A DNA stretch of 16,776 nt from Escherichia coli (GCF_003334765.1 NZ_QOWT01000053.1); one strand, 5' to 3'; positions 10,446 to 15,129 are shown, counted from the first letter of the stretch. A program made the numbers and translations. The notes: generated by a model not told the origin, from the letters alone.

Positions 10446-11732
10446 TTACTGATGATTCATCATCAATTTACGCAACGCAGCAAAATCGGCGGGCAGATTA
10501 TGTGAAAGCAAGGGTAAATCAGCACGTTCTGCCAGCTCTTTTGGCAGATCCAACGTTTCACCGAGAATCGCTTCCACGCTCTCTTTAAATTTCGCCGGAT
10601 GCGCGGTGCCGAGGAACAAGCCATATTCGCCTGGATTCAACTGATCACGCAGCGCACGATAAGCTACGGCAGCGTGCGGCTCCGAAGTGTAGCCCAGTTC
10701 TTTTAACTCACGCATTGTCTGTTGCGTGGTTTCATCATCCACGGCTGCATAACCCAGCTCTTTCAGTTGCCAGATTTTGCGGCGGAACAACTCTTCCACA
10801 CGCGGCCAGTTGTTCGGCTGACTCACGTCCATCGCGTTGGATAACGTCGCCTGAGTCGCTTTGGGTGACCACTGACCGTCGTGCAGGAAACGTGGCACGG
10901 TATCGTTCACGTTGGTCGCAGCAATAAAACGTTTCACCGGCAGACCGAGTGACTTCGCCAGCAGACCCGCCGTCAAATCGCCGAAGTTTCCGCTTGGCAC
11001 CGAGACAACCAGCTGGTTGCGCGCCTCCTGCGGCAGCTGCGCAACAGCTTCAAAGTAGTAGCAAATCTGCGCCAGCAAACGGCTGATGTTAATCGAGTTA
11101 GCCGAGTTTAACCCCAGCGCCACTTTCAGTTCTTCATCATCAAACGCCTGCTTCACCAGCGTCTGACAGGCATCGAAATCGCCGTCGATGGCAACAGTTT
11201 CGATATTGCCGCCCAATGTACAGAACAGTTTTTCTTGCAGTGGACTGATTTTGCCTCGTGGATAGAGGATAACCACTTTCACATTCGGTAAACCGTAGAA
11301 AGCATGAGCCACTGCCGCTCCGGTATCACCGGAGGTCGCGGTCAGAATGGTCACTGGCTTATCACCCGCAATATGGGTCAGCATTTGTGCCATAAAGCGA
11401 CCGCCGAAATCTTTAAATGCCAGCGTTGGCCCGTGGAACAATTCCAGACAACCGACATCGCTTTCAACATTGGCGACCGGAGCCGGGAAGGCAAACGCCG
11501 CGCGCACGCGCTCTTCCAGGATTTCCTGTGGGATTTCATCACCAATAAACGCCGAGAGGATCTTCGCACTGCGGGTGACAAAATCCAGCTTCAGCATCTC
11601 ATCAATTTCAGTCAGGCTGAATTCCGGCAGGTCGTGCGGAAAAAACAGCCCCTGATTTTTGCCCAACCCCTGGGTTACGGCTTGCGCAAAGCTGACCTGC
11701 TCGTTGTGATCTTTCAGATTGTAGAGTTTCAT
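10446..11732 (-). CDS. thrC: Threonine synthase, 428 aa
   Basis: ORF 10446..11732(-), MKLYNLKDHNEQVSFAQAVTQGLGKNQGLFFP...; PLP-lysine context (PTLAFKD) recognised; start ATG directly abuts the thrB stop. Confidence 0.98.
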   Translation of the reverse strand: MKLYNLKDHNEQVSFAQAVTQGLGKNQGLFFPHDLPEFSLTEIDEMLKLDFVTRSAKILSAFIGDEIPQEILEERVRAAFAFPAPVANVESDVGCLELFHGPTLAFKDFGGRFMAQMLTHIAGDKPVTILTATSGDTGAAVAHAFYGLPNVKVVILYPRGKISPLQEKLFCTLGGNIETVAIDGDFDACQTLVKQAFDDEELKVALGLNSANSINISRLLAQICYYFEAVAQLPQEARNQLVVSVPSGNFGDLTAGLLAKSLGLPVKRFIAATNVNDTVPRFLHDGQWSPKATQATLSNAMDVSQPNNWPRVEELFRRKIWQLKELGYAAVDDETTQQTMRELKELGYTSEPHAAVAYRALRDQLNPGEYGLFLGTAHPAKFKESVEAILGETLDLPKELAERADLPLLSHNLPADFAALRKLMMNHQ

Positions 11733-12665
11733 TTAGTTTTCCAGTACTCGTGCGCCCGCCGTATCCAGCCGGCAAATATGAACAAAACCTTCCTGATTTT
11801 GCAGGTAGTTCTTACCCAACCAGTCGGCAACGCGCTGGGCGGTATCCGGCTTGTCACATAGAGCGAACAAGGTCGGGCCGGAGCCGGAGATACCGCTCGC
11901 TACCGCGCCGATTTCCGCGACCGCCTGCCGCGCCTGCCGGAAACCAGGCAGTAACCGTTCACGGTAGGGTTCAGCGATAACATCTTTCATCAGCTTCGCG
12001 GCAAGCTCAGGCTGACGGGAATAGCAGGCGTGAATGAAGCCTGCCAGATGTCGCCCGTGCGCAATGCAATCCTGGCGGCGATACTGCGCCGGTAAAATAG
12101 CCCTGGCTTCTGCCGTCGAGACTTTAATCCCCGGATACGCCAGCACCCACAGCCACTCATCAAACCCTGGCACTTGCTGGCTGATGATGTCGTTTTCTTC
12201 GATCATCAACTGCATACCACCAAGAAAACACGGTGCCACGTTGTCGTAATGAATGCTGCCGGAGATACGTCCTTCCAGCTCGCCCATCAAAGCCAGCAAA
12301 CGAGTGTCATTAAGCGGCTTGCCGCAGTGTTCATTCATCGCCATCAGCGCCGCGACCACCGAACAGGCGCTGGAGCCTAAGCCCGAGCCGATCGGCATAT
12401 TCTTTTCCAGAGTCATCGCCACTGGAATTTGCTTGCCCTGCTCCTGGCAAAAACGCTCCCAGCACTGATAAACGATATTTTCCCGTGGTTCTGACGGCAG
12501 CTTATCGGCAAAGCGTCCGAGGTTGTTGAGACTGAATGTCTCTGCCGCCTCAACCGTGACTACATCTCCGAGCAATGCACCATCAACGGGTGTCACCGCC
12601 GCCCCGAGCACATCAAACCCGACGCTCATATTGGCACTGGAAGCCGGGGCATAAACTTTAACCAT
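11733..12665 (-). CDS. thrB: Homoserine kinase, 310 aa
   Basis: ORF 11733..12665(-), [24 protein letters not shown]...; GHMP-kinase motif ([10 protein letters not shown]) recognised. Confidence 0.98.
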
Positions 12666-12666
12666 G

Positions 12667-15129
12667 TCAGACTCCTAACTTCCATGAGAGGGTACGTAGC
12701 AGATCGGCAAAGACACCGGCAGCGGTAACGTCATTGCCCGCACCATATCCGCGCAGCACCAACGGCAGCGGCTGATAATAGTGGCTATAAAAGGCCAGGG
12801 CGTTTTCGCCATTTTTCACTTTGAACAGCGGATCATTCCCATCCACTTCGGCAATCTTCACGCGGCAGACACCATCTTCATCAATATTGCCAACATAGCG
12901 CAAAACTTTTCCTTCATCACGGGCCTTCGCCACGCGCGCGGCAAAGAGATCGTCGAGCTGTGACAGATTCGCCATAAAAGCGGCAACATCACCCTCGGCG
13001 TTAAACTCTGCGGGCAGCACAGGTTCAATTTCAATATCCGCCAGCTCCAGTTCACGTCCCGTTTCACGAGCGAGAATCAATAGTTTACGCGCCACATCCA
13101 TACCAGAAAGATCATCTCGCGGGTCCGGTTCGGTATAACCCATTTCCCGCGCCAGCGTGGTCGCCTCGGAGAAACTCATGCCTTCGTCTAACTTGCCGAA
13201 GATATAAGAAAGCGAACCTGAAAGAATGCCGGAGAACTTCACCAATTCATCACCTGCATTGAGCAGATTTTGCAGGTTCTCAATAACCGGTAATCCAGCC
13301 CCAACGTTGGTGTCATAGAGGAATTTACGCCTCGATTTTTCCGCCGCATAACGCAACTGATGATAGTAATCCATCGACGAGGTGTTGGCCTTTTTGTTCG
13401 GCGTGACAACGTGGAAACCTTCGCGCAGGAAGTCGGCATATTGATCCGCCACTGCCTGGCTGGAGGTGCAGTCAACAATGACCGGGTTCAGCAGATGATA
13501 TTCTTTCACGAGGCGAATTAAGCGCCCGAGATTAAACGGCTCTTTGGCTTGTGCAAGTTCTTCCTGCCAGTTTTCCAGATTAAGGCCATGCACACTAGTG
13601 AGCAGAGCCTTCGAGTTGGCAACGCCGCAGACACGTAAGTCGATATGTTTATTCTTCAGCCAGCTTTGCTGACGCTTCAGTTGCTCCAGCAGCGCACCGC
13701 CAACGCCACCGACGCCAATCACAAACACTTCGATAACCTGATCGGTATTGAACAGCATCTGATGAGTAACGCGCACGCCAGTGGTCGCATCATCGTTATT
13801 TACCACGACAGAGATTGAGCGTTCAGAAGATCCCTGAGCAATGGCGACAATGTTGATATTGGCGCGGGCCAGCGCGGCAAAGAATTTCGCCGAGATCCCA
13901 CGCAAGGTGCGCATACCATCACCTACCACCGAGATAATGGCCAGCCGTTCCGTCACCGCCAGCGGCTCCAGTAAGCCTTCTTTCAGTTCCAGGTAGAACT
14001 CTTCCTGCATTGCCCGTTCAGCTCGCACACAGTCGCTTTGTGGAACGCAGAAACTGATACTGTATTCGGAAGATGATTGCGTAATCAGCACCACGGAAAT
14101 ACGGGCGCGTGACATTGCAGCAAAGACGCGCGCCGCCATGCCGACCATTCCTTTCATCCCCGGACCAGAAACGCTGAACATTGCCATATTATTCAGATTG
14201 GAAATGCCTTTGACCGGTAATTCGTCTTCATCACGGCTGGCACCAATGAGCGTACCTGGTGCTTGAGGATTTCCGGTATTTTTAATCAGGCAAGGGATCT
14301 GGAACTGGGCGATGGGGGTAATGGTGCGGGGGTGAAGAACTTTAGCGCCGAAGTAGGAAAGCTCCATCGCTTCCTGGTAGGACATCGACTTTAACAACCT
14401 CGCATCGGGCACCTGACGCGGGTCGCAGGTATAGACCCCGTCAACGTCCGTCCAAATCTCGCAACAATCGGCGCGTAAACAGGCAGCCAGCACCGCCGCG
14501 GAGTAGTCGGAACCGTTGCGTCCAAGTACCACCAGTTCGCCTTTTTCATTACCGGCGGTGAAGCCTGCCATCAGCACCATGTGATCAGCCGGAATACGAC
14601 TTGCCGCAATACGGCGGGTGGACTCAGCAATATCGACGGTAGATTCGAGGTAATGCCCCACTGCCAGTAGTTTTTCGACCGGATCGATAACGGTAACGTT
14701 GTGACCACGCGCTTCTAACACGCCGGCCATAATGGCGATCGACATTTTCTCGCCACGGCAAATCAGCGCAGCGTTGATGCTATCCGGGCACTGCCCCAAC
14801 AAACTAATGCCATGCAGGACATGTTTTATTTGGGCAAATTCCTGGTCGACGAAAGTTTTCAATTGCGCCAGCGGGAATCCCGGCTGGGCGGCGGCGAGTC
14901 CCGTCAAAAGTTCGGCAAAAATACGTTCGGCATCGCTGATATTGGGTAAAGCATCCTGGCCGCTAATGGTTTTTTCAATCATCGCCACCAGGTGGTTGGT
15001 GATTTTGGCGGGGGCAGAGAGGACGGTGGCCACCTGCCCCTGCCTGGCATTGCTTTCCAGAATATCGGCAACCCGCAGAAAACGTTCTGCATTTGCCACT
15101 GATGTACCGCCGAACTTCAACACTCGCAT
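12667..15129 (-). CDS. thrA: Bifunctional aspartokinase I / homoserine dehydrogenase I, 820 aa
   Basis: ORF 12667..15171(-) trimmed to the ATG at 15127-15129 ([17 protein letters not shown]...), with AGGT RBS; its stop is separated from the thrB ATG by 1 nt. Confidence 0.98.

Follow-up and report, generated by a model that had tools for sequence, protein, structure and literature searches.

We analysed the threonine operon thrLABC of Escherichia coli, which lies on the minus strand of a 16,776-nt stretch of DNA (GCF_003334765.1 NZ_QOWT01000053.1; hereafter the window, with positions counted from its first letter) with its structural genes in the order thrA-thrB-thrC. The thrA stop codon and the thrB start codon are separated by a single nucleotide, and the thrB stop codon directly adjoins the thrC start codon. 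These two tight junctions probably do not behave alike: thrB appears to be joined to thrA by classical translational coupling, while thrC would be translated mostly by independent initiation.

On the minus strand, the thrA/thrB junction reads ...TTAGGAGTC-TGA-C-ATG-GTT, or, divided into codons, TGG AAG TTA GGA GTC TGA C ATG GTT AAA. The thrA stop TGA occupies positions 12669-12667, the single spacer nucleotide C position 12666 and the thrB ATG positions 12665-12663 (the reverse complement of 12663-12669 being TGACATG). At the thrB/thrC junction, CTG GAA AAC TAA ATG AAA CTC, the thrB stop TAA (11735-11733, minus strand) is followed immediately, and in the thrB reading frame, by the thrC ATG (11732-11730; the reverse complement of 11730-11735 is TAAATG). 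The single-nucleotide gap and the direct adjacency claimed by the initial annotation were thus both confirmed by reading 12663-12669 and 11730-11735 directly. Its gene names, operon assignment and positions stood as well; it had left unstated only that the genes are on the minus strand. The interval 11730-12669 of that strand comprises thrB together with the last thrA codon and the first thrC codon.

Misplaced start codons had been named beforehand as what would undo this description. Both starts hold, as judged by annotation, protein profiles, structure and a comparative set consisting of the 80 closest Enterobacteriaceae species fetched with ThrB (81 sequences including the window). The thrC ATG leaves no room for an N-terminal extension, its preceding codon being the thrB stop, and upstream extension of thrB is blocked four codons before its ATG by an in-frame TAG (inside TTAGGAG). 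A true start of thrB or thrC located further downstream, in which case the junctions would not be tight, could draw on an in-frame ATG at thrB codon 13 and on the profile TIGR00260, which covers only residues 52-397 of ThrC; its probability is nevertheless negligible. The proteins are conserved from residue 1 in the 80 species, in which both ATGs are invariant while the spacer bases vary freely, and third-position variation of coding type begins right after each ATG (thrB codons 2-4, thrC codons 3-6). Furthermore, the profiles cover ThrB from residue 2 (TIGR00191) and ThrA up to residue 819 of 820, the E. coli ThrC structure (PDB 1vb3) is a 428-residue chain that aligns to residues 1-428, PGAP places the starts at the same codons, and a conserved Shine-Dalgarno (SD) sequence stands 6 nt before the thrB ATG. 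The junction coordinates, the gene identities and the starts are therefore correct as given here.

The thrB SD sequence AGGAG (12672-12676, minus strand) is embedded in the thrA codons for Leu-Gly-Val (TTA GGA GTC). Its duplex with the 16S rRNA 3' end was calculated at -6.8 kcal/mol, as against -3.3 kcal/mol for the best duplex at thrC. The spacer between thrA and thrB is 1 nt long in 77 of the 80 species and 2 nt in the remaining three; its base may be C, G, A or T, and thrA ends with TAA in 69 species and with TGA in 11. At this junction the block TTAGGAGTYTRAN-ATG hardly varies (77/80 species). Synonymous sites are near saturation over the 81 sequences, codons for Leu, Gly, Val and Ala averaging about 1.4 bits. 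The rare Gly codon GGA of the SD sequence is invariant (81/81, entropy 0), whereas 38 other conserved Gly codons average 1.34 bits and none of them is at zero. The neighbouring last codons of thrA are similarly restricted, with AAG in all 80 sequences that have Lys at that site and TTA in 74 of the 80 that have Leu. From the alignment, this freezing of the last thrA codons points to selection on the thrB SD sequence.

The same arrangement of thrA stop, one nucleotide and thrB ATG is found in the thr operons of Salmonella, Citrobacter, Enterobacter, Klebsiella and others, most of which, unlike the window, use TAA instead of TGA. Both junctions of the operon are nearly fixed within E. coli; at thrA/thrB, 4,854 of the 5,426 complete genomes share the same 61-mer. 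One weaker match that we inspected (strain 510016) kept TGA-C-ATG and differed from the window by a synonymous GCC-to-GCT change at the junction. A different form, TAA-A-ATG, was seen at 2970-3030 of the locus from strain SCPM-O-B-8794, a GTDB species representative that is labelled E. coli. None of the 5,426 complete E. coli genomes contained the corresponding 61-mer, their best matches being 93.4% identical, and the strain may represent a divergent clade of Escherichia. In E. coli ET12567 (NZ_CP045457.1, 4124-4168), the 61-mer of the window matched only from query base 17 and thrB alone is annotated at that place, which suggests that the 3' end of thrA is rearranged or deleted in this laboratory strain.

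As for local structure, unfolding the region -14 to +13 around the thrB start was calculated to cost 10.0 kcal/mol, the 25th percentile of windows of the operon. The thrB start region is thus predicted to be no more open than ordinary coding sequence. Neither is its structure exceptional, since 28% of synonymous recodings with the SD sequence held fixed need at least as much energy to open. The same calculation gave 3.4 kcal/mol for thrC, i.e. the 1st percentile, and only 4% of synonymous recodings were as open as the thrC start, making it marginally exceptional. The opening energy of thrB exceeded that of thrC in 77 of the 80 species. None of the z-scores against dinucleotide shuffles was significant (thrB +0.15 and +0.81, thrC -0.99 and -0.39).

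Published data on the three start regions and on their translation are available from the supplement of Burkhardt et al. 2017. For thrA, the ribosome density is 546, the mRNA level 735, the translation efficiency (TE) 0.743, the in vivo Gini index 0.303 and the anti-SD (aSD) energy -8.48 kcal/mol. The corresponding values are 280, 578, 0.485, 0.464 and -7.78 kcal/mol for thrB, and 650, 693, 0.939, 0.252 and -3.58 kcal/mol for thrC. The Gini index was derived there by DMS-seq for the start region from -20 to +40, and our folding calculations agree with these start-region data. With mRNA levels roughly equal, the density ratios are 0.51 for thrB/thrA and 2.3 for thrC/thrB. An independent translatome data set also puts thrC (about 0.84) above thrB (about 0.48). 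If a downstream gene were translated purely by reinitiation, its initiations could not outnumber the terminations on the upstream gene. The thrB/thrA ratio is compatible with this and the thrC/thrB ratio is not. It follows that reinitiation alone cannot supply thrC and that roughly half or more of its initiations would occur de novo. Both the reinitiation step itself and this de novo share are what we infer from densities taken from the literature, the latter under the assumption of comparable elongation rates over the three genes.

The sequence around the thrC start fits this picture of a gene served largely by its own initiations. Its only SD-like element is a weak GGA (11740-11742, minus strand) located 7 nt before the ATG in the last thrB codons. 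The pairing at thrC is at background level, as 41% of the 25-nt windows of the operon reach -3.5 kcal/mol or better. The initiation region is A-rich. The spacing is also less constant than at the first junction. Values of +3 (72 of the 80 species) and 0 (six) are joined by single cases of +7 and -4. Usually the junction reads CTG GGA TAA NNN ATG, with an unconstrained NNN and a 309-aa ThrB whose last residues are VLG or VVG. GGA TAA gave way to GAA AAC (region 11733-11741) in the Escherichia lineage, ThrB ending one codon later (310 aa, ...VLEN). In two Citrobacter species, GGA TAA independently became GGA AAA (ThrB ...VLGK). The 0-nt junction is accordingly found in four loci of the Escherichia lineage and in these two Citrobacter species (L002-L005, L009 and L021 of our set). 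Since the ancestral thrB stop was lost and ThrB grew from 309 to 310 aa, the directly adjacent TAA-ATG appears from the comparison to be a derived, lineage-specific shift of the stop codon and not a conserved design. In other Enterobacteriaceae, thrB and thrC always lie within a few nucleotides of each other, but most, unlike Escherichia, have the free 3-nt spacer. A 61-mer over this junction was identical in 4,388 of the 5,426 E. coli genomes.

Two further observations concern the same site. In 78 of the 80 species thrB and thrC share a reading frame (spacing 0 or +3 nt) with one TAA between them, which the rarity of indels can explain. Rare read-through of this TAA could in principle yield a ThrB-ThrC fusion enzyme; nothing suggests that this occurs, and we consider it highly improbable. 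An antisense ORF (open reading frame) of 185 codons, 11304-11861 on the plus strand, extends over the junction; its frame is open in only 30 of the 80 species and we dismissed it as a chance ORF.

According to the mechanism that we consider probable, a ribosome that reaches the thrA UGA would sit on both the SD sequence and the AUG of thrB. Counted from the last sense codon of thrA, the thrB AUG lies 7 nt downstream, and a shift of that length would place it in the P site with AGGAG ideally spaced for the anti-SD, a textbook geometry for termination-reinitiation. The terminating ribosome may hold the local structure open and then either reinitiate at the thrB AUG or hand the site over to a new 30S subunit that the SD sequence captures, and thrB would be translated at about half the rate of thrA. 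Coupling of thrB to thrA is suggested because its SD sequence is strong, its start region ordinary to structured and its ribosome flux half that of thrA. The geometry of the thrB/thrC junction would permit reinitiation as well, with coupling making at most a minority contribution to thrC. The initial annotation had expected, from the spacing, translational coupling of the genes of one operon. This stands in so far as both gaps are in the range for reinitiation and the thrA/thrB pair fits, and it was over-generalised in being extended to both junctions, given the thrC/thrB density ratio.

The thr operon, its junctions at the sequence level and a dedicated study of coupling from 1989 were already known. 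The junctions were reportedly first described by Cossart, Katinka and Yaniv (1981, Nucleic Acids Res 9:339). Little et al. (1989, J Bacteriol 171:3518) named translational coupling in the thr operon in the title of their study, which reportedly addressed whether a downstream gene of this operon depends on translation of the upstream one. The study of Little et al. 1989 is cited in the review of Brown & Wade 2025 among the early proposals of ribosome scanning and reinitiation. Spacings of this kind are common: among 2,987 co-directional gene pairs of E. coli, 707 (24%) are spaced -8 to +6 nt (Huber et al. 2023), and Table S2 of the same work lists the thrA-thrB distance as 1 and the thrB-thrC distance as 0. 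Over 1,695 genomes, the COG pair Hom/ThrA-to-ThrB has a median distance of +2 nt (q1 0.2, q3 26.9, n = 314; Huber et al. 2023). The tight junctions of the thr operon are thus real but common, not exceptional. Widening a native overlap to +2 nt costs only 5-70% of reinitiation, while +38 nt costs 80-100% (Huber et al. 2023). Both thr spacings, +1 and 0, are therefore among the short distances (about -8 to +6 nt) at which reinitiation is supported (Huber et al. 2023). The known termination-reinitiation pairs trpB-trpA, hyfH-hyfI and menD-menH resemble the thr genes in being co-directional on one mRNA, with stop and start a few nucleotides apart and the downstream SD sequence within the upstream ORF. 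They differ in overlapping by -1 or -4 nt, the commonest motifs, whereas the thr junctions do not overlap. Unlike pairs of the trpB-trpA type, thrB-thrC is not a pure reinitiation pair, as thrC out-translates thrB. A further difference is that Table S2 of Huber et al. 2023 gives ThrA, ThrB and ThrC the score 'CMPLX not', which means that they do not form parts of one complex.

Coupling might alternatively proceed by unfolding of RNA only. A hairpin is predicted at 12638-12684 (minus strand), whose 5' arm UGGAAGUUAGGAG is formed by the end of thrA, SD sequence included, and whose 3' arm GCCCCGGCUUCCA corresponds to thrB codons 6-10, so that the arms enclose the thrB AUG. It would silence thrB until ribosomes finishing thrA melted it and a new ribosome, instead of the terminating one, initiated. 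The predicted minimum free energy is -13.1 kcal/mol (70-nt fold) with the SD sequence in the stem, and hairpin positions are 99.4% paired over 68 distinct sequences, common one-sided changes preserving the pairing (G-C to G-U, U-G to C-G). The 3' arm has low synonymous entropy (CCG in 80/81, TCC in 78/81), and among the three start regions thrB has the highest Gini index, in vivo as well as in vitro. However, the 5' end of thrC, which has no predicted hairpin, likewise shows low synonymous variation, and the stability of the thrB hairpin is ordinary compared with both dinucleotide shuffles (z +0.8) and synonymous recodings (28%). The covariation test on 81 sequences, for which the shuffle control was uninformative, detected no compensatory double changes and spoke neither for nor against the hairpin. 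Moreover, with a stop-start gap of 1 nt a new ribosome must await the departure of the terminating one, and refolding then competes, by an argument made in the review of Brown & Wade 2025. The hairpin resembles those of atpH-atpA, rpmI-rplT and the phage MS2 coat-lysis pair, where a stem-loop also buries the downstream SD sequence with its 5' arm inside the upstream ORF, a concept set out in the review of Brown & Wade 2025. These, however, are backed by mutation or probing, while the thr hairpin is predicted only, with unexceptional stability and no covariation. We consider the hairpin a plausible, not an established, contributor to coupling, and an account based on unfolding alone unlikely.

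Several points weigh against coupling of thrB to thrA. A strong conserved SD sequence is equally expected of a gene that initiates independently; a 1-nt spacer kept across one bacterial family may reflect only the rarity of indels; and with a hairpin lacking covariation and no stabler than shuffled or recoded sequences, thrB need not depend on translation of thrA. Tight spacing is by itself a weak predictor, the spread in relative translation being about the same among overlapping gene pairs as among non-overlapping ones (Burkhardt et al. 2017). In a kasugamycin translatome, the KEV values of thrB (1.06) and thrC (1.03) equal the genome average and do not fall in the resistant class linked to reinitiation; these values are polysome-based and hard to interpret for cistrons on one mRNA, and we regard the result as neutral.

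Such points would suit a simple compaction of the operon, in which free 30S subunits initiate thrB and thrC independently and the tight junctions are a by-product of a gene-dense genome. The optimal spacing of the strong conserved thrB SD sequence, the unusually open start of thrC, the two-fold difference in TE between neighbours and the KEV values of about 1 agree with this. So do the drift of the thrB/thrC spacing among species (0, +3, +7, -4) and the high share of similarly spaced E. coli co-directional pairs (24%), overlapping pairs being no better matched in translation. On the other hand, a ribosome at the thrA stop covers the SD sequence and AUG of thrB, meaning that events there are not independent; the thrB start, at the 25th percentile and with a Gini index that is high both in vivo and in vitro, does not resemble a typical self-sufficient start; and a published study (Little et al. 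1989) bears translational coupling in this operon in its title and is cited for it. We therefore hold compaction without coupling to be somewhat less probable still than unfolding alone. The opposite extreme, strict stoichiometric coupling in which the same ribosomes read thrA, thrB and thrC and the enzymes are made in equal, fixed amounts, is allowed by both spacings and by a single mRNA present at similar levels over the genes. It is contradicted by the densities (546 / 280 / 650), with thrC 2.3-fold above thrB, which would be impossible if thrC were fed only from thrB, and by the independent translatome data. This account is very improbable, and could be saved only if thrB were elongated about twice as fast as thrC or footprint mapping were biased.

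Besides coupling of thrB and largely independent initiation of thrC, one may speculate that the two junction designs serve to set enzyme ratios, with hairpin-gated thrB made only by ribosomes finishing thrA and with thrC deliberately uncoupled, through its SD-poor and unusually open start, to be made about two-fold over thrB. We regard this as doubtful.

The identity of the operon is well supported. The 5-kb operon stretch is 100% identical to several E. coli chromosomes and was matched in 5,425 of the 5,426 complete genomes, most of which are 95-99% identical over the 5 kb; strain H3 and others are the best matches, and the background of the window is that of a non-K-12 strain. Three of the 5,466 places at which the operon was found in the E. 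coli collection are on plasmids, not chromosomes, and one genome contains up to seven places. The PGAP/RefSeq annotation of a 100%-identical chromosome gives thrL, the Thr leader region, thrA (2463 nt), thrB (933 nt) and thrC (1287 nt), and leaves 1 nt between thrA and thrB and 0 nt between thrB and thrC. The ORF list of the window agrees, with thrC at 10446-11732, thrB at 11733-12665 and a thrA ORF ending at 12667, all on the minus strand. The first gene, thrA (12667-15129, minus strand), encodes bifunctional aspartate kinase / homoserine dehydrogenase I of 820 aa (NCBIfam equivalog NF006959, 1397.9 bits over residues 1-819; PGAP). Homoserine kinase, 310 aa, is encoded by thrB (11733-12665, minus strand; NCBIfam equivalog TIGR00191, 406.2 bits over residues 2-309; PGAP; homolog PDB 4rpf over residues 1-308), and threonine synthase, 428 aa, by thrC (10446-11732, minus strand; NCBIfam equivalog TIGR00260, 434.3 bits; PDB 1vb3, 1-428 of 428; PGAP). 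All three profile scores are well above their cut-offs.

The thrL region, i.e. the leader and attenuator of the operon, lies 5' of thrA at 15155-15274 (minus strand; Rfam RF00506 Thr_leader, 121 bits against a gathering threshold of 55; PGAP thrL), with a terminator-like stem of the attenuator at 15158-15191. The longest ORF of thrA would start at GTG 15171 (834 aa). We rejected this start in favour of the annotated and profile-supported ATG at 15129 (820 aa) because the 14-codon extension overlaps the terminator stem. A consensus scan of 10200-15400 for promoters and terminators found none at the junctions, and counts were at or below shuffle expectation. With 1 and 0 nt between the genes there is no space for a terminator or promoter, and with published mRNA levels of 735 / 578 / 693 the three genes belong to a single transcription unit; one attenuator-controlled mRNA would give all three enzymes. 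The thr genes are also listed in a table that, according to its header, covers ORFs lacking internal promoters or terminators (Burkhardt et al. 2017). Compared with thrLABC of E. coli K-12 (b0001-b0004), the genes, their order and strand relationship, the upstream Thr leader and the junction spacings of 1 and 0 are the same, and nothing of substance differs.

Elsewhere in the window, a member of the tpke11 small RNA family (Rfam RF02031, 69.6 bits against a gathering threshold of 43) was detected at 1298-1375 (minus strand) in the dnaK-dnaJ intergenic region. A coding sequence at 4109-4822 (plus strand), at the position of yaaW, bears the PGAP label 'msyB: acidic protein MsyB' in strain H3, and an antisense ORF of 164 codons (4150-4644, minus strand) lies inside it. 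The yaaW position in K-12 is presumably the site of the disputed overlapping gene htgA/mbiA.

The thr operon is among the first sequenced and best annotated loci of E. coli and its junction spacings have already been tabulated, so the finding as such matters little, beyond validating gene boundaries that had been placed by eye. What the operon does illustrate is that tight spacing of genes does not amount to equal or obligatory coupling, since thrC is translated more than thrB.

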